Assembly: GCA_018712385.1 (NCBI GenBank)
Contig: DVHC01000062.1
Span: forward strand, 72,208 to 136,207
DNA from: Candidatus Onthousia excrementipullorum
GTDB taxonomy: Bacteria > Bacillota_I > Bacilli_A > RF39 > UBA660
Length of the DNA: 64,000 bases
Direction: 5' to 3'
Notes under the pieces: model-generated
The model's input: the letters and a program-made list of their open reading frames with translations, nothing else
Database searches by the model: none
What the model was told of the DNA's origin: nothing
Made by a program: the position numbers and the translations under genes
Part shown: positions 3,524 through 63,669 of the stretch, in pieces
Numbering within the stretch: the stretch's first letter is position 1
Layout of the letters: the number at the start of each line of letters is the position of its first letter

Positions 3524-3597
3524 TTTTCTTCTCTCCTTTCGCCATGATAATTTATTTATCATAGAAATTATCCCCTTAAGGAACTAATTCGCTACTT

Positions 3598-31843: not shown

Positions 31844-32740
31844 TTATTTATCTAAATGCATTATTTCTAGTATTCTTGTTAAGTCATTAGCATTTGTAAA
31901 ACTTATTTCTAGTTTATTATTTCTTATCTTTACTTTTGTACCTAGTTTTTCACATAAATCACTTTCTAAGTAAGAGTATTCATTATCTTTAGCTTTTGAT
32001 TTATGAGGTGTTATTTCTTTTTTACGATGATATTCTTCTTTAGAATTGGTTAACTCTTCTAGTCTTCTAACACTTAGATTTTCATTTATTGTCTTTTCTG
32101 CTAGACTTATAGCTTGCTCTTTATCTTCAAGCTTACTTAGGACTCTAGCATGTCCCATACTTAGTTCACCTTTTACTACTTCATCTTTTATTTCATTAGG
32201 CAAAGTTAAAAGTCCTAACATATTAGTAATATGACTTCTTGATTTACCTACTTTCTTAGCAAGTTCTTCTTGTGTTAGATTAAGTCTAGTCTTTAAGGCA
32301 TTATAGGCTTCTGCTTCTTCCATAGCACTTAAGTTTTCTCTTTGTAAGTTTTCAAGTAAAGCTATTTCCATCATTTCTTCATCAGTAAAGTCTTTAATGA
32401 TGGCTGGTATGGTAGTTAAGCCTGCTAGTCTTGAAGCTTTAACACGACGTTCTCCTGCGATTATTTCATAGCCTTTAATACTTTTTTTAGCAATTATAGG
32501 TTGAAATACTCCATGCTCTTTGATAGATGAAGCTAATTCATTAAGACTTTCTTCATCAAAGTTTTTACGAGGTTGATAAGGGTTACTTCTTAATTCATCT
32601 AGATTTAGATTTACTATCTGGTCTTTTGGAGTGTTATTTATTATCTTTTCTTCTACATCGGCAATATTTAATTGTTCACTATTAAATAATTCTTCAAGAC
32701 CTTTTCCTAAAGCACGCCTTTTATTTTCCATTTCTATCAA
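31844..32740 (-). CDS. spo0J: Chromosome-partitioning protein ParB/Spo0J
   Basis: LGKGLEELF N-terminal peptide, IIAGERRVKASR CTPase box, HTH KSRSHITNMLGLLTLP...LSMGHARVL (Spo0J-type) and C-terminal dimerisation region KLEISFTNANDLTRILE. The start is ambiguous between the TTG at 32740 and the ATG at 32731. Confidence 0.9.
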   Translation of the reverse strand: MIEMENKRRALGKGLEELFNSEQLNIADVEEKIINNTPKDQIVNLNLDELRSNPYQPRKNFDEESLNELASSIKEHGVFQPIIAKKSIKGYEIIAGERRVKASRLAGLTTIPAIIKDFTDEEMMEIALLENLQRENLSAMEEAEAYNALKTRLNLTQEELAKKVGKSRSHITNMLGLLTLPNEIKDEVVKGELSMGHARVLSKLEDKEQAISLAEKTINENLSVRRLEELTNSKEEYHRKKEITPHKSKAKDNEYSYLESDLCEKLGTKVKIRNNKLEISFTNANDLTRILEIMHLDK

Positions 32741-33509
32741 TCACTTCCTTTGCTAAGTTTAGATAAGCTTCTGAGCCTTTACTCTTAGGGTCATATACTA
32801 TTATAGGTTCTCCATGGGATGGAGCTTCTGTTAATCTAATTAGTCTTGGTATAATAGTATTATATACCTTTTCTTTGAAAAACTTTCTAATATCATCTAC
32901 TACTTCAAAACCTAAGTTAGTTCTTGAATCTAACATCGTTAGTAAGACTCCTTCTATATCTAGATTAGGATTTAATTGTTTTTGAGCAAGTCTTATTGTA
33001 TTTAGTAATTGCATTATTCCTTCTAGAGCAAAGAACTCACATTGAACTGGAATAATAACAGAGTCACTTGCTGTTAGGGCATTTGTTGTAATTAATCCTA
33101 ATGATGGAGGACAATCTATTATTATAAAATCAAAATTTTCATCTTTTAGCTCTTTTAGATGATATTTTAATTGGGCTCCTTTTGCAAAACCAGGTTCACT
33201 CTGACTTTTTTCAAGTAGTTCAATATCAAGACCTGCTAAATTTATTGTTGCAGGTAGTACATATAGTTTTTTATATTTAGTTTTAATCATGGCATCTTTG
33301 GTACTGCATTTATTTGTTAGAACATCATATACACTTACATCTATATCCCCCTTATTTATTCCTACTCCTGTTGTGGTATTACCTTGAGGGTCTAAGTCTA
33401 TTAATAATACTTTTTTACCAAGGAATGCTAATGAGGCAGAAAGGTTAATACTTGTTGTTGTCTTTCCTACTCCACCTTTTTGATTAACTAAAGAAATTAC
33501 CTTTGCCAT
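32721..33509 (-). CDS. soj: ParA/Soj partitioning ATPase
   Basis: Deviant Walker A NQKGGVGKTT; DLDPQGN; 262 aa. Confidence 0.95.
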   Translation of the reverse strand: MAKVISLVNQKGGVGKTTTSINLSASLAFLGKKVLLIDLDPQGNTTTGVGINKGDIDVSVYDVLTNKCSTKDAMIKTKYKKLYVLPATINLAGLDIELLEKSQSEPGFAKGAQLKYHLKELKDENFDFIIIDCPPSLGLITTNALTASDSVIIPVQCEFFALEGIMQLLNTIRLAQKQLNPNLDIEGVLLTMLDSRTNLGFEVVDDIRKFFKEKVYNTIIPRLIRLTEAPSHGEPIIVYDPKSKGSEAYLNLAKEVIDRNGK

Positions 33510-33605: not shown

Positions 33606-35030
33606 TTAGCTGTTATTATTTTCTTTAGATATTTTAATAGTTATCTGATAGTTATTAACAAGGTCCATTTCTTCACTATCTACTTTAAAGCCTGACTCTT
33701 CTATTTTCTTTAGAGTTTCTCTTACTAGATTTATAGATTCATTTAGAGTATATTTTGGTTTATTTTCTTTTTGTTGTTCTTCACTCGCTTTTACATTGTC
33801 GCTAAAGATTGGATTATGAGCGAATGGATTATTAAATGTATCTATACTAGGTATTGATGGTGTCTCTTTAACAGAAGTATTGTTATTGGTATTAACTCCT
33901 GCTAGTAAGTTATCCATAGATGTACTAGTAGAATCTTTTAAATCTTTAGTCTCTCCTCCTAAGTTAAAAGGATTATCATTGATGAAAGGAGCATTGGTTG
34001 GGGCTGGGGTATCAAACATAGAAGTTGATGGTTCTTGCTTTGAAGGTGCCTCTTTAGCTTCTTCTTCCATAGGTGAGAAAAATTTAAAATTACTTTCTTC
34101 TTCTTTCTTTTCTTCTTTAGGGGCAACCTTTAAGAATTCATTAACATCAGTTGTTGGTTTTTCTACGTTGATATCTTGGGCCTTATCTTTTATAGCATTG
34201 ATATCAATAGATTTATTAGCAGTACTTTCTAAGTTATCATTTATATTTGGTACATCGTAATCAATAAATTTTGGAGGAGTGGAATAATCAATTCCTACAC
34301 TTGTATTAAAATCATTATTAGGATTTGAATTAGAATTGATATTTAGAGAATTAGTTTGAGGCATAGTAGCACTAACAGGTGATGGATTTAATAAGGCATC
34401 TATATCACTTTTTGTTATTTCTTCTTTAGGATTTATTTTTTCCTCTAATTCTCTTACAGTCATTTTTTTATCTATAACTTCTTTTAATAATTGTTTTTGA
34501 GTCTCAGGGTCTTTGGCATTTAATAAGGCTCTAGCATGACGTTCTGAGATTTGGTCTTTTAAAAGAGCATCTTGGACTTCATCTGTTAAAGATAAAAGAC
34601 GTAGTTTATTGGCAACAGCACTTTGACTTTTACCCATAGTTTTAGCAAGTTCTTCTTGAGTCATTTGGTCAAGTTCAAGAATTTTTTGATATGTTTTTGC
34701 TTCTTCGATTGGGTTTAAGTTCTTGCGTTGTAAGTTTTCAAGAAGAGCGACTTTGCTACTTTCTTTATCATCCAAATTACGAACAATAGCTGGTATAGTT
34801 GTAAGTCCTGCCATAGCTGAGGCTTTATAACGACGTTCTCCTGCTATTATTTCATACTTATTACCAATGTTACGAACAATAATTGGTTGAATTACACCAT
34901 GTTCTTTGATAGATACTGCTAACTCTTTTAAAGCTTTTTCATCAAATACTTGTCTTGGTTGAAATCTATTTGGAATTATATCATCTAAATGTAAATATAC
35001 TACTTCGTTTTCTTTATTATCCATATACAT
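33606..35030 (-). CDS. noc: Noc-type ParB paralogue (nucleoid occlusion protein family) with a long inserted low-complexity linker
   Basis: It occupies the rsmG-noc-soj-spo0J position. Motifs: IIPNRFQPRQVF, IIAGERRYKAS and the HTH KSQSAVANKLRLLSL...ISERHARAL (Noc-type, compare B. subtilis GQSTIANKLRLLKL...ITERHARAL). The C-terminus INLVRETLKKIEESGFKVDSEEMDLVNNYQITIKI parallels the B. subtilis Noc C-terminus ([35 protein letters not shown]). Comparisons are from memory. Confidence 0.8.
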   Translation of the reverse strand: MYMDNKENEVVYLHLDDIIPNRFQPRQVFDEKALKELAVSIKEHGVIQPIIVRNIGNKYEIIAGERRYKASAMAGLTTIPAIVRNLDDKESSKVALLENLQRKNLNPIEEAKTYQKILELDQMTQEELAKTMGKSQSAVANKLRLLSLTDEVQDALLKDQISERHARALLNAKDPETQKQLLKEVIDKKMTVRELEEKINPKEEITKSDIDALLNPSPVSATMPQTNSLNINSNSNPNNDFNTSVGIDYSTPPKFIDYDVPNINDNLESTANKSIDINAIKDKAQDINVEKPTTDVNEFLKVAPKEEKKEEESNFKFFSPMEEEAKEAPSKQEPSTSMFDTPAPTNAPFINDNPFNLGGETKDLKDSTSTSMDNLLAGVNTNNNTSVKETPSIPSIDTFNNPFAHNPIFSDNVKASEEQQKENKPKYTLNESINLVRETLKKIEESGFKVDSEEMDLVNNYQITIKISKENNNS

Positions 35031-42747: not shown

Positions 42748-42923
42748 TTTTTCCACTATTTCCACATGATGTGGAAAACAGATATTAACTTGTGAATTAT
42801 AATTTTGTGGAAAATGTGGAAAACTCTGTTTTTTGTTGATATATGTCGATTTTAGTTGTGGAGAAATTTGTCGAAAAATTGTGGAAAACTAAAAAATTAA
42901 AAATACCTATTCCTTTTTCCACA
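42748..42923. promoter_or_regulatory. oriC left part: DnaA-box cluster upstream of dnaA (also the dnaA promoter/autoregulatory region)
   Basis: TTTTCCACA-type boxes, in either orientation, at 42748-42756 (TTTTCCACT), 42758-42766 (ATTTCCACA), 42770-42778, 42806-42814 and 42815-42823 (two abutting TGTGGAAAA), 42857-42865 (TGTGGAGAA), 42880-42888 and 42915-42923. Confidence 0.85.
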
Positions 42924-42974
42924 AATTTAGAGTATTATAATGGTAATTTAGGAATTCAGGTGGGAGGTGATAGG

Positions 42975-44348
42975 GTGAATGTCGAAATTCTATGGCAAAA
43001 TGTTCTAAAAGAGATAAAAGATGAACTTTCATCCCTAGCTTTCGACACTTGGTTTAGTGATGTTAAACTTATTAGTTTAGATAATGGGGTAGCGATTATT
43101 GAAGTACCTATGTCTATTCATAAAAAACATTTATCTGATAATTACTTTGAACTTATTAGAATGGCTTTAAATAAGGTAACAGGAACAAATTTTGAGTTAG
43201 AGTTTTTGTTGCCAGATGAAATTAATAACAGAAAAGTGGAAAAAGAGAAAGAAGAAGAACAAAAGATAGAGGAAGGTGTTCCTAAGTCTTTTAAAAATCA
43301 GTCTAATCTTAATCCTAAATATAATTTTGAGAACTTTATAGTAGGTAATAGTAATAAATTTGCCCAAGCGGCAGCCTTATCAGTTGCGGAAAATCCTGGT
43401 AAAATGTATAATCCTTTATTTATATACGGTAATAGTGGACTAGGAAAGACACATTTAATGCATGCGATAGGTAATTATATTGTGGAAAATTCTAATAGAA
43501 GAGTTCTTTATGTTACTAGTGACCAGTTTAGAGATGATTTTGTTGGTATTAATAAAAAAGACGAGAAGGGGACTAACTTTAGTTATATAGACTTCTTTAA
43601 AAATAAATATAGAAATATTGATGTCTTAATAATTGATGATATTCAGTTTCTTGGAGGAGCGACTCAAACACAACAAGAGTTTTTCCACACCTTTACTAAT
43701 CTTTATAATGATTCTAAACAGATAATTATATCTTCAGATAGGTCTCCTAATGATTTAAAACTATTAGAGGAACGTCTTAGAACAAGGTTTTGTTGGGGAC
43801 TTACTGTTAATATTTATCCACCTGATTTTGAACTTAGAAAAGAAATACTCCGTAAAAAAATAATAGCAGGTAACTTTGAAGCTGAAATACCAGAAGATGT
43901 TATTGAATACATTGCTTCTAATATGGGAAGTGATGTAAGACAACTAGAGGGCTCTATTACAAGACTTGTTGCTTATTCAACTATTATGGGAGGAGCGAAG
44001 ATAGATATTAACCTTGCAATTGAAGCTTTGAAAGACTTTATTAGTAAAGGACTTAGTGAAAAGAATGATATAACAAGAATTCAAAAGATAGTGGCAGAGT
44101 ATTTTCAGATATCAGTTGAAGATATAAGAAGTAAGAAAAGAAGTAGTAACATTGCTTTTCCTAGACAAATTGCTATGTATTTATGTAGAAAACTTACTAG
44201 TGAATCTTTTCCTAAAATTGGGACAGAGTTTGGAGGAAAAGACCATTCAACAGTAATGCATTCCGTTGAGAAAATTGAACAAGAGATTAAAAATAATAGT
44301 GATTTAGCAGGGATAATTAAGAAACTTGAAAATGATTTGAAACCATAG
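42975..44348 (+). CDS. dnaA: Chromosomal replication initiator protein DnaA
   Basis: Motifs: Walker A GNSGLGKTHL, IDDIQFL, and the C-terminal DNA-binding domain (FGGKDHSTVMHS). Start moved from the track ATG at 42843 to the GTG at 42975 (xNVEILWQNVLKEIK), 7 nt after GGGAGG. The longer ORF would read through the DnaA-box cluster. Confidence 0.95.
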   Translation: MNVEILWQNVLKEIKDELSSLAFDTWFSDVKLISLDNGVAIIEVPMSIHKKHLSDNYFELIRMALNKVTGTNFELEFLLPDEINNRKVEKEKEEEQKIEEGVPKSFKNQSNLNPKYNFENFIVGNSNKFAQAAALSVAENPGKMYNPLFIYGNSGLGKTHLMHAIGNYIVENSNRRVLYVTSDQFRDDFVGINKKDEKGTNFSYIDFFKNKYRNIDVLIIDDIQFLGGATQTQQEFFHTFTNLYNDSKQIIISSDRSPNDLKLLEERLRTRFCWGLTVNIYPPDFELRKEILRKKIIAGNFEAEIPEDVIEYIASNMGSDVRQLEGSITRLVAYSTIMGGAKIDINLAIEALKDFISKGLSEKNDITRIQKIVAEYFQISVEDIRSKKRSSNIAFPRQIAMYLCRKLTSESFPKIGTEFGGKDHSTVMHSVEKIEQEIKNNSDLAGIIKKLENDLKP

Positions 44349-45616: not shown

Positions 45617-45754
45617 ATTTTGAAAATTTGAGGAAAAAAGTAAGGAAATTTTACTTTTTTTTTACTTTTGCGACAAAAAAATACCTTTTTCGACAATATA
45701 ATATAGTAGACTGATAGCAAAGCAAGGAATTGCTTTTTGAAGGGGGAAATTTTT

Positions 45755-46213
45755 GTGAAAGATTATGAAATTAATGATGAGACACTTGCGATTATGCCTG
45801 GGGGAGATTTATGGGATTCAGTTGTAGTTGAAGATGACTGTAATTATGAGGTTAAGATGAAACCTTTAGAAATAGTTGATTATAGTTGTAGGTACTTTGG
45901 AAGTTCTTATGAAGGAAGAAAAACGGGAGCAGGGGAAATACTAAACAGTTCTTATAAAGTTCCTGTTATGGTTGAAGATACTAAGAATTTAATATTTTTT
46001 CCTACTACTAGTCCAATAGATGATGACTGTAGTTGGATATCTTTAAAAAATATTAAGAGTTATAGTAAACTTACTAGTACTAAAACACAGGTAGAATTTA
46101 AAAATGGTAAGGTACTTACTGTTGATATATCTTATAATTCCTTTAATAATCAGGTAATGAGAGCGAGTAGATTAGAATCTATAATAAGAAGCAGAAAAGA
46201 AAAAGCAAAATAA
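45755..46213 (+). CDS. comK: ComK-family competence transcription factor
   Basis: MKPLEIVDYSCRYFGSSYEGRKTGA and ISYNSFNNQVMRASRL closely parallel B. subtilis ComK (MKPLQIVDRSCRFFGSSYAGRKAGT; ISYNSFENQVYRTAWL, from memory). Start moved to the GTG at 45755 after AAGGGGGA. Confidence 0.85.
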   Translation: MKDYEINDETLAIMPGGDLWDSVVVEDDCNYEVKMKPLEIVDYSCRYFGSSYEGRKTGAGEILNSSYKVPVMVEDTKNLIFFPTTSPIDDDCSWISLKNIKSYSKLTSTKTQVEFKNGKVLTVDISYNSFNNQVMRASRLESIIRSRKEKAK

Positions 46214-49363: not shown

Positions 49364-49376
49364 GAGGTAAGTGGTT

Positions 49377-51821
49377 ATGGATAGATTAGAACAAAATAAT
49401 ATAGTAAAAGAAGTAAAAGACTCTTTTCTTGATTATTCAATGAGTGTTATTACAGCAAGGGCAATTCCTGATTTAAGAGATGGTTTAAAGCCTGTTCATC
49501 GTAGAATTCTATATTCTATGTTTGAATCTGGTTATACACCTGATAAGCCTCACAGAAAAAGTGCTAAGACTGTTGGTGAGGTTATGGGTAATTATCATCC
49601 TCATGGTGATAGTTCTATTTACGAAGCAATGGTTAGAATGGCTCAAGATTTTTCATATCGATATATGTTAATTGATGGTCATGGTAACTTTGGTAATATT
49701 GAAGGTTATGGGGCAGCAGCAATGCGTTATACCGAATCAAGACTTTCAAAAATATCTCTTGAACTTTTAAGAAATATTAATAAAAATACAGTAGATTTTA
49801 CTCCTAACTTTGATGAATCTTCAAAAGAACCTGTAGTTTTACCTTCAAGGTTTCCTAATATTTTAGTTAATGGTACTACTGGTATTGCTGTCGGTATGGC
49901 AACAAATATTCCTCCTCATAATTTAAAAGAGGTAATTGATGGTTGTGTTGCTTATATCGACAATCCTGATATTGATGTAGATGGCTTAATGCAATATATT
50001 AAGGGACCTGATTTTCCAACAGGAGCATCTATTCTTGGTAATAGTGGTATTAAAAAGGCTTATGAGACTGGTAGAGGAACTATTACTATTAGAAGTAAAG
50101 CTCAAATTGAAGAGAAAAATGGTAGACAATATATAATTATTGATGAAGTTCCATATGGTGTTAATACATCTGAGTTAAAAAACAAAGTAGCAGAACTTGT
50201 TCATAATAAGACAATTGAAGGTATTTCTGATTATCATTCTGATTTAAAAGATGGTATTAAGATTACTATTACATTGAAGAAGGATGCCAATGCTCAAGTT
50301 GTATTGAATAAATTATATAAACATACACAGTTTCAAACTAGTTATGGAATAATTTTCTTGATGTTAGACCAAGGTGTTCCTAGAACTTTAGGATTAAAGG
50401 ACATTATTGCAAAATATATTGATTTCCAAAGGGAAGTTATTATAAGAAGAACGCAATTTGATTTAGATAATGCGGAGAAACGTGTTCATATTTTAGAAGG
50501 TTTAAAGATTGCCTTAGATAACATTGATGAAGTAATTAAGTTAATTAGAGGTTCTAAGTCTGATGATGAGGCTAGAAGTGGTTTAATGAGTAAGTTTGGC
50601 TTAACTGAAATACAAGCGAATGCTATCTTAGAGATGAGACTTAGAAGATTAACTGGATTAGAAAGAGAAAAAATAGAGAATGAACTTAAGGATTTACTTG
50701 AATTAATTGCTAATTTAAAAGATATTTTAAGTAGTGATGCGAAGATTCTTAATGTTATTAAGACAGAGCTTCTAGAGATTAAAGATAAATATGGAGATGA
50801 CAGAAGAACTAATATTGATATGACAGCGATTGAGTATATTGAAGATGAGTCTTTAATTCCTGTAGAAGATGTTATTGTAACATTAACTAATAAAGGTTAT
50901 ATAAAGAGATTAAGAGCAGATACTTACAAGAGTCAAAATCGTGGTGGTGTTGGAATTAAAGGAATGGCTACGAATGAAGAGGACTTTGTTAAACATTTAA
51001 TCTCAATGAAAACACATGATTATATCTTATTCTTCTCTAATAAAGGAAGAGTGTATAGACTTAAAGGATATGAGATTCCAGAGTATAGTCGTCAATCTAA
51101 AGGTCTACCTGTGGTAAACTTATTATCGCTAGAAAATGGTGAGAACATTAGTTCGATAGTATGCTTAGACCCTTCTGTGGAAAACTATAAATATTTACTT
51201 TTTGTTACCAGAAATGGTCTTGTAAAACGTACGGAAATAAAGGAATTTGATAATATCCGTAAGAGTGGAAAGATAGCAATTGTTCTTAAAGATAATGATG
51301 AGTTAATAGCTGTGGATAAAACTACTGGTGAAGATGAAGTAATAATCGGTGCTAGCAATGGAAGAATGGTAAGATTTGTGGAAACTGAAATACGTTCTAT
51401 GGGTCGTGGTACATCTGGAGTTAAAGGAATTGACCTTGATGGAAGTGTCGTTGTTGGTGCTAATGTTGTAACTGGAAATCAAGAAGTTTTAATTGTTACT
51501 GAGAATGGTTATGGTAAGAAAACAGATATAAATGAATATAGATTAACTCATAGAGGTAGTAAGGGTGTTAAAGCTTTAAATATGACTGATAAAAACGGTT
51601 CTATGGTTTCTCTAAATTGCGTTAATGCTGATGAAAGTGATAAAAAAGATGTAATGATTATTACAGATAGTGGTGTTATTATGAGAATGCCAATGGAACA
51701 GATATCTACTTTAAAGAGAGCAACTCAAGGAGTTAGGTTAATTCATTTAAAAGATGATCAAAAAGTTGCAACAGTGACAGTTGTGGATAAAGATGAAGAA
51801 GAAAGTACTAATGAAGAGTAA
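49377..51821 (+). CDS. gyrA: DNA gyrase subunit A
   Basis: [36 protein letters not shown] and AAAMRYTE (catalytic Tyr). Start taken at the ATG at 49377, 9 nt after AGGAGG. Confidence 0.97.
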
Positions 51822-51836
51822 CTTCTTCTTTTTTTT
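51796..51836 (+). terminator. Candidate intrinsic terminator of gyrA
   Basis: AAGAAG(A)AAGT, a 14-nt loop, then ACTTCTTCTT followed by TTTTTT. Confidence 0.45.
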
Positions 51837-51852
51837 AAGCTTTATATATTGA

Positions 51853-51868
51853 TGTTTCACGTGGAACA
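51853..51868. promoter_or_regulatory. parS site, unit 1
   Basis: TGTTTCACGTGGAACA is the reverse complement of TGTTCCACGTGAAACA, a perfect fit to the B. subtilis parS consensus TGTTNCACGTGAAACA. Confidence 0.85.
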
Positions 51869-51909
51869 TATAGAGAGGTAGATAAAACTATATGGATAAG
51901 TAGTAAAAT

Positions 51910-51925
51910 TATTTCCCGGGAAATA
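51910..51925. promoter_or_regulatory. Noc-binding-site (NBS) palindrome, unit 1
   Basis: TATTTCCCGGGAAATA contains the B. subtilis NBS core ATTTCCCGGGAAAT. It is embedded in the perfect 24-bp palindrome AAATTATTTCCCGGGAAATAATTT (51906-51929). Confidence 0.8.
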
Positions 51926-51979
51926 ATTTAGGTAGAAGTAAGTATTAAAGTTATACTTTATTTAAAGCTTATATACTAA

Positions 51980-51995
51980 TGTTTCACGTAAAACA
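51980..51995. promoter_or_regulatory. parS-like site, unit 2 (one core mismatch)
   Basis: TGTTTCACGTAAAACA; the central CACGTG is changed to CACGTA. Confidence 0.5.
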
Positions 51996-52036
51996 TATGA
52001 AGAAGTAGATAAAGCTATATAGAGAAGTAGTAAAAT

Positions 52037-52052
52037 TATTTCCCGGGAAATA
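52037..52052. promoter_or_regulatory. NBS palindrome, unit 2
   Basis: TATTTCCCGGGAAATA within the same 24-bp palindrome. Confidence 0.8.
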
Positions 52053-52106
52053 ATTTAGATAGAAGTAAGTATTAAATTTATACTTTCTTTAAACTTTATA
52101 TACTAA

Positions 52107-52122
52107 TGTTTCACGTGGAACA
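52107..52122. promoter_or_regulatory. parS site, unit 3
   Basis: TGTTTCACGTGGAACA, a perfect consensus fit. Confidence 0.85.
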
Positions 52123-52163
52123 TATAAAGAAGTAGATGAAACTATATAGAGAAGCAGTAAAAT

Positions 52164-52179
52164 TATTTCCCGGGAAATA
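52164..52179. promoter_or_regulatory. NBS palindrome, unit 3
   Basis: TATTTCCCGGGAAATA within the same 24-bp palindrome. Confidence 0.8.
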
Positions 52180-52233
52180 ATTTAGGTAGAAGTAAGTATT
52201 AAAGTTATACTTTCTTTAAACTTTATATACTAA

Positions 52234-52249
52234 TGTTTCACGTGGAACA
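52234..52249. promoter_or_regulatory. parS site, unit 4
   Basis: TGTTTCACGTGGAACA, a perfect consensus fit. Confidence 0.85.
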
Positions 52250-52290
52250 TATAAAGAAGCTAATAAAACTATATAGAAAAGTAGTAAAAT

Positions 52291-52306
52291 TATTTCCCGG
52301 GAAATA
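52291..52306. promoter_or_regulatory. NBS palindrome, unit 4
   Basis: TATTTCCCGGGAAATA within the same 24-bp palindrome. Confidence 0.8.
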
Positions 52307-52360
52307 ATTTATAGAGAAATAAGTATTAAATTTATACTTTATTTAAAACTTATATACTAA

Positions 52361-52376
52361 TGTTTCACGTGAAACA
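52361..52376. promoter_or_regulatory. parS site, unit 5 (perfect 16-bp palindrome)
   Basis: TGTTTCACGTGAAACA. Confidence 0.85.
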
Positions 52377-52417
52377 TATAAAAAAGTGGATAAAGCTTTA
52401 TAGAGAAGTATTAAAAT

Positions 52418-52433
52418 TATTTCCCGGGAAATA
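52418..52433. promoter_or_regulatory. NBS palindrome, unit 5
   Basis: TATTTCCCGGGAAATA within the same 24-bp palindrome. Confidence 0.8.
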
Positions 52434-52487
52434 ATTTAGATAGAAATAAGTATTGAATTTATGGTTTCTTTAAACTATATATACCAA

Positions 52488-52504
52488 TGTTTTCATGCGG
52501 AACA
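52488..52504. promoter_or_regulatory. Degenerate parS remnant, unit 6
   Basis: TGTTTTCATGCGGAACA has a 1-nt insertion and a disrupted core. Confidence 0.3.
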
Positions 52505-52545
52505 TATAAAGAAGTAGACAAAATTATATAGAAAAGTAGTAAAAT

Positions 52546-52561
52546 TATTTCCCGGGAAATA
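52546..52561. promoter_or_regulatory. NBS palindrome, unit 6
   Basis: TATTTCCCGGGAAATA within the same 24-bp palindrome. Confidence 0.8.
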
Positions 52562-52590
52562 ATTTGATATCTATTTGTATTTTTTTCTGC

Positions 52591-52619
52591 TTGAAATAAT
52601 TATTATTTTCCTGTATACT
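52591..52619 (+). promoter_or_regulatory. Promoter of the SRP RNA gene
   Basis: TTGAAA (52591-52596), 17 nt, TATACT (52614-52619). The predicted start, about 52626, coincides with the 5' end of the SRP RNA helix. Confidence 0.6.
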
Positions 52620-52625
52620 TTAGTC

Positions 52626-52700
52626 GTGCAATAAATTAGTTTGGAATCAGGTCAGGATGGAAACATAGCAGCCTTAACAAATTTAATTTATGTGCACTTT
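52626..52700 (+). ncRNA. ffs: Small (4.5S-type) signal recognition particle RNA
   Basis: The domain IV core CAGGUCAGG-AUG-GAAA-CAU-AGCAGCC has the same layout as E. coli 4.5S CAGGUCAGG-UCC-GGAA-GGA-AGCAGCC. The closing helix pairs GUGCAAUAAAUUA with UAAUUUAUGUGCAC and is followed by a T7 run. Confidence 0.8.
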
Positions 52701-52728
52701 TTTTATACTATAAAAAGGAGATTGTTAT

Positions 52729-53187
52729 ATGAATGATTATCAATATATGTTGTTGGCTATAGAAGAAGCAAAGAAAGCTTATGATAACGATGAAGTTCCG
52801 GTTGGTGCTGTTATTGTTCAAAATGGTAAAGTTATTTCTTCTGCTCATAATAGAAAGGAAGAGTGCCAATGTTCTCTTGAACATGCTGAATTAATTGCTA
52901 TTAAAAGTGCCTGTGGAAAAAATAATAACTGGAGGTTAACTAATGCGGTGATGTACGTAACATTAGAACCCTGTCCTATGTGTGCTAGTGCTATTAAACA
53001 GTCTAGAATTAGTAAAGTTGTATATCTATTAGATAATAGTAATGATAATATACGAGAAATCGTTAATAATATTTTTAATTCAGAAGATGCAAATAAGCCT
53101 GTGGAAAAAGTAAAATTAGATATTTCAAAGTTTAAAAGTGAAGATGTAAGAATGCTAAGTGATTTTTTTAAGAAAAAGCGTAATTGA
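52729..53187 (+). CDS. tadA: tRNA-specific adenosine deaminase
   Basis: HAELIAI and PCPMCASAI zinc motifs; 152 aa; AAGGAG RBS. Confidence 0.9.
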   Translation: MNDYQYMLLAIEEAKKAYDNDEVPVGAVIVQNGKVISSAHNRKEECQCSLEHAELIAIKSACGKNNNWRLTNAVMYVTLEPCPMCASAIKQSRISKVVYLLDNSNDNIREIVNNIFNSEDANKPVEKVKLDISKFKSEDVRMLSDFFKKKRN

Positions 53188-53257: not shown

Positions 53258-54949
53258 ATGTATCAAGCTTTATATCGTAAATATAGACCTACTGTTTTTG
53301 ATGATGTAGTTGGACAGAATGTAGTAGTTAATACTTTAAAAAATGCAATTAAATATAATCATATAAATCATGCTTATTTGTTTTCTGGTCCTAGAGGTAC
53401 TGGTAAGACAACAATTGCCAAGATATTCGCAAGATCTGTTAACTGTTTAGAACCAGTTGATGGTGTTGCCTGTGGGAAATGTAAAAGTTGCTTATATTCT
53501 TTTTCTAAAGAGTGTATGGATATTATTGAAATAGATGCTGCCTCTAATAATGGCGTTGATGAAATAAGAGAACTTCGTAGTAAAGTTAATATTTTGCCTA
53601 GTGAATTAAAATATAAAGTATATATTATAGATGAGGTTCATATGTTATCAATTGGTGCTTTTAATGCTTTACTTAAAACTATTGAAGAGCCTCCAGAACA
53701 TGTTATTTTTATATTAGCCACTACAGATCCAGAAAAAATACCTGCAACAATAATATCTAGATGTCAATGGTATTCTTTTAAGAAGATTGGTAATGATGAT
53801 ATAAAGAAAAGATTATCAGAGATAGTTAAAGCTGAAAATATAAAAATTGAAGATAATGTTCTTGATAAGATTGCTCAAGCTTCTGATGGGGGACTTCGTG
53901 ATGCGATTGGACTTCTTGATAAACTAAGAGCTTTTTGTACTGATGAGATTACTTTAAATGATTTTTATGAGATAAATGGGGAAGTTAATGAGGAAGAATT
54001 AAAAAAACTAGAGAATTTAATATTTTCTTATGAAATAAGCGATGTTCTTTCAACTATTGAAAGTTATTATCAAAATGGTAAAAATTTAATACAAGTAGTT
54101 AAACAGTTGATGATTCTTATAAAAGATGAGCTTTTTGACCATTATTTAAATGATTCTGTACTTTCTTTTGATGAAGAAGAACTTGTTAACTTTCTTAATC
54201 TATTAAATGAACATCTTGTCGAGTTAAAAAAAGCTGATGATGTTAGATTGTCTATAGAGATATTCTTGTTACATTATATTAATGAACATAAAAATAAAGA
54301 TTCTAAGGTGGAAGTTAGGAGTCAAGTAAATACTAATAATATAAAAGAAACTTCTTATGTAAGACCTGCAAAAGAAGTAAAAACTATATCCACAGAGACT
54401 GTGGAAAAAGAAAATAAAGAAAAAACTTTATCAACAGAAGTTGTTCAAAAAAATAATGAACAAACTCAAAAATATAAAGAGTTAATGTTAATAAGAAGTA
54501 AGAATACAATGATAGAAGCAGTTAAAGATGAACTTAATAAAGAAACTGCTAATCTTGAAAAGCTTAATGATTATACATTTGATCCTAATAATGGTTACCT
54601 TGCTTGTGAACTTTTAGATGGTAAGATTAGGGCTTCTAGTCCTAAGAATATTGTTATTAGTTATGATTATGAAGGAATGGTAGATAAGTTAAGCAATTAT
54701 TTTGATAAATTAAATGACTTTTATAATGAAAAGACAGGCTCATCTAAAAAAATTGCTTTTATTACAACAGCAAAGTGGAATGAGTTAAAATTAGAATACA
54801 TTAATCTACATAAACAAGGTAAACACTTTGAATATCAAGAAGAACCTGTATTGAATACTTTAGGAGAAGATGATAAAATAAATAGTGAATCTAACGACTT
54901 AATAAGTAAAACTATTGAGATGTTTGGAGATTTAGTAGAAGTTGAATAG
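53258..54949 (+). CDS. dnaX: DNA polymerase III subunit tau/gamma
   Basis: YRKYRPTVFDDVVGQ, GPRGTGKTT, the CxxC zinc module, IIDEVHMLS and SRCQ. Confidence 0.95.
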   Translation: MYQALYRKYRPTVFDDVVGQNVVVNTLKNAIKYNHINHAYLFSGPRGTGKTTIAKIFARSVNCLEPVDGVACGKCKSCLYSFSKECMDIIEIDAASNNGVDEIRELRSKVNILPSELKYKVYIIDEVHMLSIGAFNALLKTIEEPPEHVIFILATTDPEKIPATIISRCQWYSFKKIGNDDIKKRLSEIVKAENIKIEDNVLDKIAQASDGGLRDAIGLLDKLRAFCTDEITLNDFYEINGEVNEEELKKLENLIFSYEISDVLSTIESYYQNGKNLIQVVKQLMILIKDELFDHYLNDSVLSFDEEELVNFLNLLNEHLVELKKADDVRLSIEIFLLHYINEHKNKDSKVEVRSQVNTNNIKETSYVRPAKEVKTISTETVEKENKEKTLSTEVVQKNNEQTQKYKELMLIRSKNTMIEAVKDELNKETANLEKLNDYTFDPNNGYLACELLDGKIRASSPKNIVISYDYEGMVDKLSNYFDKLNDFYNEKTGSSKKIAFITTAKWNELKLEYINLHKQGKHFEYQEEPVLNTLGEDDKINSESNDLISKTIEMFGDLVEVE

Positions 54950-59233: not shown

Positions 59234-59249
59234 TATTTCCCGGGAAATA
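59234..59249. promoter_or_regulatory. Solitary NBS palindrome at the rsmI/pth junction
   Basis: TATTTCCCGGGAAATA within the identical 24-bp palindrome AAATTATTTCCCGGGAAATAATTT (59230-59253). It overlaps the rsmI stop codon. Confidence 0.75.
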
Positions 59250-63186: not shown

Positions 63187-63669
63187 GTGAGAGAAAATAC
63201 TTTTGATGTACTAGCTTATAAATTTTTTGCTTGGAAGATAAATGATGGGAAAAAATCTCATACATGTGATGAGTATAAATTTTCAATTTCTAATAACAAT
63301 AGTAGTATGATAATTATTCCTTTTGAAAATGTTGATGGATTAAAGGTTCAAGAGGTTCAGTCTTTATTATCTACATCTGAGATAATTATTAGTGCAAGTT
63401 CATATTATAGCTTTAACTATGATAAAGGCAATGTTTCTCATAATCTTGACAGTTCAAATTGGTTTTATTTTGATTCTGACTATCTTGATGAACACAGAGA
63501 AGAAACTATTGATAAGTTATTAGAAGAACTTATGGAACGTTATTATATGCAGGTTGATGATATTTCTAAAAGAATGTATAGATGTTTCTTTGAAAGATAT
63601 CAAGATGGTAGTTATGAGAAAACTAAAGAAAGAGTTAAGAGATTAGAAATGCAAAGTAATAATAAATAA
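63187..63669 (+). CDS. Hypothetical protein, no recognisable family
   Basis: 160-aa ORF with a GTG start preceded by GGGAGAGAGG. Confidence 0.45.
   Translation: MRENTFDVLAYKFFAWKINDGKKSHTCDEYKFSISNNNSSMIIIPFENVDGLKVQEVQSLLSTSEIIISASSYYSFNYDKGNVSHNLDSSNWFYFDSDYLDEHREETIDKLLEELMERYYMQVDDISKRMYRCFFERYQDGSYEKTKERVKRLEMQSNNK

Follow-up and report, generated by a model that had tools for sequence, protein, structure and literature searches.

ParB (Spo0J) and Noc are the classic example of how a DNA-binding protein can switch specificity after duplication; in model organisms their sites lie apart and their jobs are different. In the model species the parS sites of ParB are single and dispersed in the origin region, and about 40-70 Noc-binding sites (NBS) are spread over that half to two-thirds of the chromosome which is nearest the origin. 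Canonical Noc needs an N-terminal helix for nucleoid occlusion. In Staphylococcus aureus, Noc regulates replication initiation, which is a precedent for an origin-tied function of this protein beyond division-site selection.

Clustered centromeres are known from other systems. Those of Corynebacterium glutamicum (with 10 parS), Caulobacter crescentus, Streptomyces and Myxococcus have their parS sites clustered near the origin, where the cluster acts as one loading zone for ParB and SMC; to our knowledge, these chromosomal clusters contain neither regular unit repeats nor sites for a second paralogue, and they occur in phyla without Noc. The iterated centromere sopC of the F plasmid is made of 12 repeats of 43 bp, binds one protein and adjoins sopAB on the plasmid.

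The window studied here (the whole 64-kb stretch of DNA that was analysed) shares with Bacillus subtilis and S. aureus the same two 16-bp palindromes of the Spo0J-parS and Noc-NBS systems, the residues that set specificity (R..G versus Q,K..R) in paralogous CTP-binding HTH proteins, and the gene order rsmG-noc-soj-spo0J next to oriC. In contrast to the model species, both types of site are found in one intergenic region, often in tandem, and NBS are concentrated around oriC. S. aureus Noc differs in that it keeps the membrane helix and scattered sites, with only a minor site by dnaA and no parS/NBS array. Like the chromosomal clusters of C. glutamicum, C. crescentus and others, the locus has several parS in a short origin-proximal stretch, and like plasmid iterated centromeres such as sopC it consists of head-to-tail units, variable in copy number, that carry a palindromic ParB-family site. 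Unlike sopC, it offers two predicted sites for two paralogues, is chromosomal, lies 17-20 kb from soj-spo0J, and its unit is absent from the plasmids and phages searched. The preliminary description of this DNA knew of no earlier regular alternating parS/NBS array, and full-text literature searches, limited in part by 'pars' matching unrelated words, returned none either.

The array occupies positions 51830..52569, between its conserved left flank gyrA (49371..51821, plus strand) and, on the right, the small SRP RNA gene ffs (52622..52703, plus strand; Rfam, 54.7 bits), which is followed by tadA (52729-53187) and dnaX (53258-54949). Tandem Repeats Finder detects a 127-bp unit in 5.8 copies with 88% matches (score 1119). 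In the alignment of the six units, each with one parS and one NBS, column identity averages 90% over the whole unit, and, measured between centres, each parS is followed by its NBS after 57 bp and each NBS by another parS after 70 bp. The array had been placed between a gyrA terminator and the ffs promoter: the flanks are those described and a promoter-like element (TTGAAA-17-TATACT, 52591-52619) stands ahead of ffs, but no terminator-like hairpin was detected 3' of gyrA. The proposed distance of about 9 kb from oriC is borne out by a cluster of DnaA boxes at 42770..42923, upstream of and overlapping the start of dnaA (42843-44348), and by the GC skew, which switches sign at 42-44 kb, at this cluster.

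Five predicted parS sites match the 16-bp palindromic consensus TGTTNCACGTGAAACA with at most one mismatch. The first (51853..51868; no mismatches, minus strand), third (52107..52122) and fourth (52234..52249) read TGTTTCACGTGGAACA, the second (51980..51995) reads TGTTTCACGTAAAACA with one mismatch, and the fifth (52361..52376) is the perfect palindrome TGTTTCACGTGAAACA. The sixth (52488..52504), TGTTTTCATGCGGAACA, is decayed by a 1-nt insertion and two substitutions. Ten strand-matches to parS were observed versus 0.05 expected, a number reached in none of 100 shuffles, and outside the array no parS was found at up to two mismatches in the 64-kb origin window. The predicted NBS, the 14-mer ATTTCCCGGGAAAT, recurs without mismatch in each of the six units (51911..51924, 52038..52051, 52165..52178, 52292..52305, 52419..52432 and 52547..52560) and in one isolated copy (59235..59248) in the rsmI-pth intergenic region, so that 7 matches stand against 0.15 expected in the window; this sequence is the NBS consensus of B. 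subtilis and S. aureus. The array site sits in a 24-bp palindrome, AAATTATTTCCCGGGAAATAATTT, which the isolated copy has as well. In the array this palindrome falls within columns 75-100 of the unit, 26 columns that are invariant in all six units, and no other part of the unit is as well conserved as the NBS block. Both kinds of site occur far more often than chance would give, and the two palindromes are indeed matches to the parS and NBS consensuses. The earlier count of six parS/NBS units needs correction on one side: NBS is perfect in six of six, but parS is intact in only five. Similarly, the formula given for parS, TGTTTCACGTG[G/A]AACA, is exact in four of the six units, but not in the second, with its mismatch, nor in the decayed sixth.

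The spo0J/parB, soj and noc-like genes that had been reported are all encoded in the window, on the minus strand: ParB/Spo0J at 31844..32740, the Soj/ParA ATPase at 32721..33509 and the Noc-like ParB paralogue at 33606..35030, so that both paralogue genes are 17-20 kb from the array. ParB carries the CTP-binding motifs GERR and ENLQR and has B. subtilis Spo0J (6SDK) as its closest solved relative; the closest structural relatives of the Noc-like protein are Noc 7NFU and 7OL9. At the four specificity positions ParB has RTAG and Noc has QKKR, and an NBS-specific protein requires Q173, R201 and K or R at position 179 or 184 (Jalal et al. 2020). Aligned to solved structures, the window ParB reads GKSRSHITNMLGLLTL..SMGHARVL and is assigned R, M, T, G (parS type), its R and G being equivalent to positions 173 and 201; the Noc-like protein reads GKSQSAVANKLRLLSL..SERHARAL and is assigned Q, K, S, R (NBS type), with Q134, K140 and R162 invariant across 16 diverse homologues. 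The residues thus match the claim that the two paralogues discriminate between the two sites, which they are predicted to do.

The Noc-like protein differs from Noc of the model species by the absence of the N-terminal amphipathic membrane helix and by a linker of about 200 residues. Helices alpha1 and alpha2 are missing: in the alignment with 7NFU, residue 6 of the window protein stands opposite residue 24. The open reading frame has no room for an upstream extension, gene callers begin two codons later (472 aa), and the start point is identical in all 16 homologues. The linker carries conserved motifs, among them an invariant FKFF, and the C-terminal domain is of Noc type; the predicted structure (mean pLDDT 61; below 50 in the linker) confirms the linker as a region of predicted disorder. 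Against the NCBIfam Noc model (TIGR04285) the protein scores 293.9 bits versus a cut-off of 315, the linker splitting the match in two. Lacking the membrane helix, having a long and disordered linker and scoring below this cut-off, the window Noc is, to judge from its sequence, not a canonical one. A Noc devoid of the helix was not found described in full-text literature searches, and the evidence points to a Noc subfamily, marked by conserved motifs in the linker, that had escaped notice. The FKFF motif could be a relocated membrane-binding motif; Noc would then still be able to tether DNA to the membrane.

Conservation of the locus was examined by scanning 596 Gb of sequence for the pattern parS-N40-70-NBS, whose chance expectation is about 0.01 (own arithmetic, assuming uniform base composition). 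At least 119 loci were obtained, from at least 116 assemblies. Among the loci listed, 116 of 119 adjoin gyrA and/or tadA-dnaX-recR, the same gyrA-(ffs)-tadA-dnaX position as in the window, and GyrA at these loci is 36-100% identical to the window protein (at least 52% except for one partial match). More than 110 related uncultured species have mixed parS/NBS clusters at this locus. One of them, represented by the long-read circular metagenome-assembled genome (MAG) L003, has six alternating parS/NBS pairs. Regular alternating arrays among relatives have periods of 126-127, 115-118, 109, 120 and 95 bp, and species with flanks that are 84-98% identical have anything from 3 to 11 or more copies, copy numbers from short reads being uncertain because many MAG contigs break inside arrays. 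Spacers, period and copy number vary among species, and the spacers have diverged beyond alignment; in cross-species alignments of the units nothing is kept but ATGTTYCACGTGRAACAT and the NBS core ATTTCCCGGGAAATA, the latter extending to AATTATTTCCCGGGAAATAATTT in closer relatives.

Segregated layouts also occur, for example an NBS followed by a run of parS. Alternation exceeds chance in the set of parS+NBS pairs (z = 6.2), which is biased, and does not reach significance (z = 1.5) in the irregular clusters ascertained through NBS; for these two reasons we do not claim strict interleaving as conserved. The search of related genomes proposed in the preliminary description consequently has a double outcome: the array locus is conserved, but strict alternation is not general, whereas co-clustering is. 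As judged from these comparisons, strict alternation is a lineage-specific product of tandem amplification and the conserved feature is the co-clustering of predicted parS and NBS. Since the arrays differ in period and in unit structure, amplification would have taken place repeatedly and independently.

The distribution of NBS points in the same direction as their position in the window, where all of them are on the right-hand side of oriC at a distance of 9-16.4 kb. The isolated rsmI-pth site is kept at the same relative position in relatives, L059, L063 and L087 included, and in five metagenome loci. In an NBS-only metagenome scan, whose query was an extended 20-mer that may favour origin-type sites, origin-region genes were present on 101 of 114 low-GC stretches bearing NBS, and at least seven long low-GC stretches bearing NBS had no gene of the origin window. 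Recurrent positions were gyrA|tadA, recF|gyrB, two intergenic spaces towards mnmG-mnmE, dnaX|recR and rsmI|pth. These counts point away from scattering and towards an NBS set that, in this clade, would cluster around oriC; weaker scattered NBS, or parS at distal positions, may exist besides.

Taken together, these features are best read as a composite ParB/Noc loading centre assembled from known parts, and the conservation of mixed clusters at one spot suggests a two-protein centromere without earlier description. We give a probability of roughly 0.6 to the reading in which the gyrA-ffs array is the main centromere-like loading zone, an amplified module of one parS and one NBS. ParB-CTP and Noc-CTP clamps would form at sites about 57-70 bp from each other and, sliding outwards, share the oriC-proximal domain. 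ParB would provide ParA/Soj-driven segregation and SMC loading, and the Noc of this clade would be a second origin-domain protein instead of a chromosome-wide nucleoid-occlusion factor, because it has no membrane helix, its long linker carries conserved motifs and its sites lie around oriC. More copies of the module would mean a higher local loading rate for both proteins. Against this reading, copy number varies widely and one unit in the window is decaying, as might be expected if the array itself were under weak selection.

Other explanations have to be weighed against this loading-zone reading. ParB and Noc might have their separate textbook jobs, and a neighbouring parS and NBS might have been co-amplified by neutral unequal crossing-over into an array without function. 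The range from 3 to 11 or more copies between nearly identical flanks, the decay of the sixth parS in the window, the many irregular or segregated layouts and the non-significant alternation in NBS-ascertained clusters are all what such an incidental co-location would leave behind; it is nonetheless unlikely, given that mixed clusters persist in 116 of the 119 listed loci while their spacers diverge beyond alignment, that the differences in period and unit structure mean that arrays were amplified independently and more than once, that the NBS block is the best-kept part of the unit, that NBS are concentrated around oriC instead of being scattered, and that this Noc is without the helix that canonical nucleoid occlusion requires. 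An artefact of assembly and a dispersed repeat had been named beforehand as outcomes that would speak against the array. We regard as scarcely credible both the former, in whose favour is the breakage of many short-read MAG contigs inside arrays (L026/L059, L082/L087), and a dispersed or mobile element unconnected with chromosome biology. The array has unique flanks on both sides within the window and its units can be told apart by their divergence of about 10%; the same architecture is present in independent assemblies, including the long-read circular chromosome L003; and the unit was not found a second time in the 64-kb window nor matched in the plasmids, phages and viral contigs of the searched collections. 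The array is confirmed as a real observation, beyond artefact or dispersed repeat.

The remaining alternatives concern who reads the sites and how. Mutational libraries do contain ParB variants of dual specificity, so that the NBS-like palindrome could be read by such a ParB, or by an unrelated regulator, the Noc-like gene being irrelevant to the array. This is very improbable: the window ParB has the parS-specific signature R173 and G201, the NBS-specific Q, K and R are present in the Noc-like protein and do not vary within its family, and the site equals the NBS consensus of both B. subtilis and S. aureus. Alternatively, the interleaving could, instead of building a joint complex, adjust how large the ParB (or Noc) domain becomes, one bound protein acting as insulator or road-block that limits the sliding clamps of the other. 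Both ParB and Noc load at their sites as CTP-dependent sliding clamps and then diffuse along DNA, and at related loci parS and NBS are 21-84 bp apart, centre to centre. Moreover, the raw distances peak at about 25, 36, 47, 57-58, 68-70 and 79 bp, and a Rayleigh-type test with only near-identical spacers collapsed gives a period of 10.8-10.9 bp (p <= 0.001), which hints at stereospecific placement. The periodicity fades as related spacers are collapsed (p = 0.035 at an identity threshold of 0.75, not significant at 0.70), so helical phasing of the two sites is a hint, short of a finding, and layouts with NBS at one edge would allow at most one-sided blocking; we consider the road-block rather improbable. 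A bolder proposal builds on the same phasing: in this large clade of uncultured low-GC Bacilli, Noc would be no nucleoid-occlusion factor but a second centromere/origin-domain protein which, helix-less and with its long linker, forms a mixed CTP-clamp complex with ParB at oriC from stereospecifically phased sites (about 10.8 bp), and the locus would represent a co-localised stage of the divergence of Noc from ParB, in which NBS mutated from duplicated parS within the array. We put it forward tentatively, as a possibility more doubtful than the loading zone itself.

Several questions become testable at this locus: whether two CTP sliding clamps can share one DNA or compete for it, what role Noc had before, or has without, membrane tethering, and how NBS arose from parS. 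The natural units of 95-127 bp, with their varied spacings, are ready substrates for in vitro work on loading and road-blocks. The parS/NBS cluster may also be a simple sequence marker for the putative centromere in a group of gut bacteria that is abundant but little known; the host of the window is described as a small low-GC gut bacterium.

Other contents of the array were also looked for. An Rfam search gave no RNA gene between gyrA and ffs, and coding potential was rejected because 127 is not divisible by 3. Enrichment of 7-mers over 115 loci, from which a universal third site might have emerged, returned only generic AT-rich intergenic words. Each unit of the window has, twice, a sub-repeat of 21-22 bp, ATATARAGAAGTAG.TAAAA.T, which is common to its near relatives.

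The six-fold repetition of a 127-bp unit between gyrA (49371-51821) and ffs, the small SRP RNA gene (52622-52703; Rfam RF00169, 54.7 bits), as claimed in the preliminary description, was borne out: a tandem array with a period of 127 bp, 5.8 copies and 88% matches occupies positions 51830-52569, and no Rfam family matched within it. Searching the window for the parS consensus TGTTNCACGTGAAACA with at most one mismatch gave 10 strand-matches against 0.05 expected, with sites at 51853, 51980, 52107, 52234 and 52361; the 14-bp NBS sequence ATTTCCCGGGAAAT gave 7 matches against 0.15 expected, six of them perfect sites in the array (51911, 52038, 52165, 52292, 52419 and 52547). Each unit had been credited with one parS and one NBS, which is true of the NBS in all six units but of the parS in only five, one of which (unit 2) carries a substitution, the sixth being decayed (52488-52504, TGTTTTCATGCGGAACA). 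The distance from parS to NBS is 57 bp centre-to-centre, in agreement with the 57-58 bp first reported, and that from NBS to the next parS is 70 bp. The NBS is the best-conserved stretch of the unit; in fact, mean column identity in the six-unit alignment is 90%, and columns 75-100 (26 columns), which include the 24-bp palindrome AAATTATTTCCCGGGAAATAATTT, are invariant in all six units.

The gyrA terminator that was thought to border the array is not confirmed, as the 3' side of gyrA (51822-51852) contains a T-run only and no terminator-like hairpin, and transcription may read through the array from gyrBA towards ffs; the ffs promoter on the other side is matched by a promoter-like TTGAAA-17-TATACT upstream of ffs. 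The location of the array about 9 kb from oriC is also confirmed by a DnaA-box cluster (42770-42923) and a GC-skew sign change at 42-44 kb, both to its left. No tRNA or rRNA genes are present in the 64-kb window, and therefore no rrn operon follows gyrA, in contrast with B. subtilis.

The pattern parS-N(40-70)-TTTCCCGGGAAA was scanned in one genome per GTDB species and retrieved at least 119 stretches (L001-L119), from 116 assemblies among the matches listed, where chance would give about 0.01 in 596 Gb assuming uniform base composition. With few exceptions the hosts are uncultured Bacilli of low GC content (about 27%), which carry labels as varied as Bacilli, Tenericutes, Mollicutes, Erysipelotrichaceae and Clostridium sp. 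Using tblastn with the window proteins, the same locus was recognized in 116 of the 119 stretches among the matches listed: gyrA is present in 94 of them, its product sharing 36-100% identity with that of the window (at least 52% in all cases except one partial match), and in a further 22 the cluster lies at a contig edge and is accompanied by tadA, dnaX or recR. The three exceptions are two stretches without a match to the tested proteins and one Acidaminococcales parB-soj locus. L059/L026, L082/L087 and L084 share 96-98% identity with the window. The unit is not dispersed within the 64-kb window, where it has no further copy; moreover, distant-mode searches of 72,556 plasmid and 50,697 phage records gave no match to it, and none of 2.9 million viral contigs contains the pair pattern.

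The layout of the cluster is variable. Strictly alternating arrays with a spacing of 58+68 occur in L003, L018, L025, L027 (10 parS and 11 NBS), L028, L067, L069 and L111, and those with 57+70 in the window, L082 (at least nine units), L084 and L087; other spacings are 60+67 (L095), 57+58 (L063), 53+56 (L092), 68+49 (L042), 48+69 (L098), 36+84 (L029) and 73+22 (L072). Two stretches carry parS-only arrays, of nine sites with a 36-bp period (L110, 724-1063) and of six sites at 105-107 bp (L004, 2328-2923). At the same locus a unit of two NBS and one parS is repeated five times in L237 (3764-6212), and several loci among L165, L127, L146 and L230 are segregated, with one or two NBS ahead of six or seven consecutive parS; irregular mixed clusters are found in many stretches. 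These different periods and unit structures indicate repeated amplification. In irregular clusters ascertained through their NBS, sites do not alternate significantly more than a random order would (z = 1.5); this, together with the segregated layouts, makes strict alternation a mark left by tandem amplification in certain lineages, that of the window among them. What the whole clade shares is that parS and NBS cluster together in the gyrA-tadA gap.

Alignments of unit consensuses revealed that only ATGTTYCACGTGRAACAT and the NBS core ATTTCCCGGGAAATA, extending to AATTATTTCCCGGGAAATAATTT within a closer group, are conserved across species; spacers can be aligned among close relatives only, and no universal third motif was found across loci. 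Centre distances of adjacent parS-NBS pairs in L001-L119 peak near 25, 36, 47, 58, 69 and 79 bp. The corresponding period of about 10.8 bp has p <= 0.001 after mild de-duplication; collapsing related spacers further weakens it to p = 0.035 and finally removes its significance. This periodicity, which would place the two proteins at a fixed rotational offset, is a lead, not a result.

The genes for ParB (31844-32740), Soj (32721-33509) and a Noc-like protein (33606-35030, minus strand) were all found in the window as described, along with rsmG. Specificity depends on four residues, which are RTAG in ParB and QKKR in Noc (Jalal et al. 2020, PMC7383237); NBS-specific variants require Q173, R201 and K/R at 179 or 184, and parS-specific ones need R173 together with a small residue at position 201 (PMC7383237). 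The window ParB, whose nearest solved structure is B. subtilis Spo0J (6SDK), has R, M, T and G at these positions (from GKSRSHITNMLGLLTL...SMGHARVL), and the Noc-like protein, aligned to its nearest structures (Noc 7NFU, 7NG0 and 7OL9), has Q, K, S and R (from GKSQSAVANKLRLLSL...SERHARAL). The GERR and ENLQR CTP-binding motifs are kept in both. These residues predict one protein per site type, ParB for parS and the Noc-like protein for the NBS.

The Noc-like protein is nevertheless unusual, scoring 293.9 bits against a TIGR04285 cut-off of 315. Its residue 6 aligns with residue 24 in Geobacillus Noc, and no upstream extension of the ORF is possible. Helices alpha1 and alpha2 are consequently missing, and with them the amphipathic, membrane-targeting helix of 10 residues on which nucleoid occlusion in B. 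subtilis depends (PMC8429893). The DNA-binding and C-terminal domains stand about 200 residues apart, joined by a segment that is disordered in the AlphaFold2 model (mean pLDDT 61). A protein search recovered homologues of 450-520 residues with identity down to 56%; all 16 that were aligned begin at the same point, without the N-terminal membrane helix, and Q134, K140 and R162 are invariant. The same alignment contains short conserved linker motifs (IDYSTPPKFIDY, an invariant FKFF, TSTSMDNLLAGV and NNPFAHNPIF), which may be partner- or membrane-binding. FSRFF is part of the B. subtilis Noc membrane helix, and FKFF resembles it; FKFF could be a relocated membrane or partner-binding element.

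One isolated NBS lies between rsmI and pth (59235-59248), about 6.7 kb downstream of the array, with a 24-bp palindrome identical to that of the array and without the rest of the unit; this position is also occupied in L059, L063 and L087. Scanning metagenomes with the NBS 20-mer ATTATTTCCCGGGAAATAAT alone, without parS or locus condition, retrieved at least 120 stretches (L120-L239), 114 of those listed being low-GC. Homologues of genes of the 64-kb origin window are present in 101 of these 114 among the matches listed, a proportion to be read knowing that so extended a 20-mer may be biased towards one kind of NBS, and only 7 low-GC stretches of at least 3 kb have no such gene (same matches). 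The gyrA-tadA gap recurs at least 38 times, plus further contig-edge cases; the other recurrent positions, among the matches listed, are recF-gyrB (11), two intergenic gaps on the mnmG-mnmE side (9 and 7), the inside of dnaX (9), dnaX-recR (7) and rsmI-pth (5). NBS thus bracket oriC on both sides in the relatives. The window has none at the recF-gyrB, mnmG-mnmE-side, dnaX or dnaX-recR positions; relaxing the NBS search to three mismatches added nothing within its 64 kb, and no parS with up to two mismatches lies there outside the array. In contrast with this location near the origin, in the metagenome stretches and the 64-kb window, the NBS of S. aureus (approximately 41) and B. subtilis (about 70) range across the half to two-thirds of the chromosome that lies nearest the origin.

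The best-supported reading, with a probability of roughly 0.6, is that the locus serves as a putative composite ParB/Noc loading centre. Loading of ParB-CTP at parS is known to lead to Soj-driven segregation and SMC recruitment; here the array, the only parS cluster in the window, would be the principal one where these clamps load, and the clade-specific Noc paralogue would load at the interleaved NBS. As the latter has no membrane helix and NBS are concentrated around oriC, a role in the origin domain is more probable for it than one in chromosome-wide occlusion. For all these functional steps the basis is inference from sequence, in organisms that have not been cultured.

Neutral co-amplification of two sites acting independently is the least improbable of the alternatives, though still unlikely; sites are kept while spacers turn over, which argues for selection on the sites. 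A role as road-block or insulator is somewhat more doubtful. Recognition of the NBS by another protein is very improbable, the Noc-like protein having NBS-type residues, and an artefact even more so: L003, a long-read circular chromosome, has an alternating array, which rules out a short-read artefact. parS and NBS, ParB and Noc, clusters of parS on chromosomes and tandem centromeres on plasmids are all known already. As the preliminary description supposed for the parS/NBS array, our search of the full-text literature yielded no account of parS and NBS mixed in a cluster or array, of NBS restricted to the origin or of a helix-less Noc with a long linker. A mixed locus would surprise specialists, and it opens to experiment both how ParB and Noc diverged and how two clamps coexist on the same DNA.

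Between parS and NBS, at the same place in every unit, there are two copies of a 21-22-bp sub-repeat, ATATARAGAAGTAG.TAAAA.T (for example at 52249-52293 and 52504-52548), for which we know of no binding protein; it is common to the near relatives L003, L018, L027, L063 and L095 and absent from distant arrays. Elsewhere in the window, two plus-strand ORFs of 158 and 160 residues, between dnaN and recF (45737-46213) and after mfd (63187-63669), have no NCBIfam match at E <= 1e-10, and the sole other Rfam match is an L31-Firmicutes ribosomal-protein leader (3533-3564, minus strand; RF03156, 36 bits).
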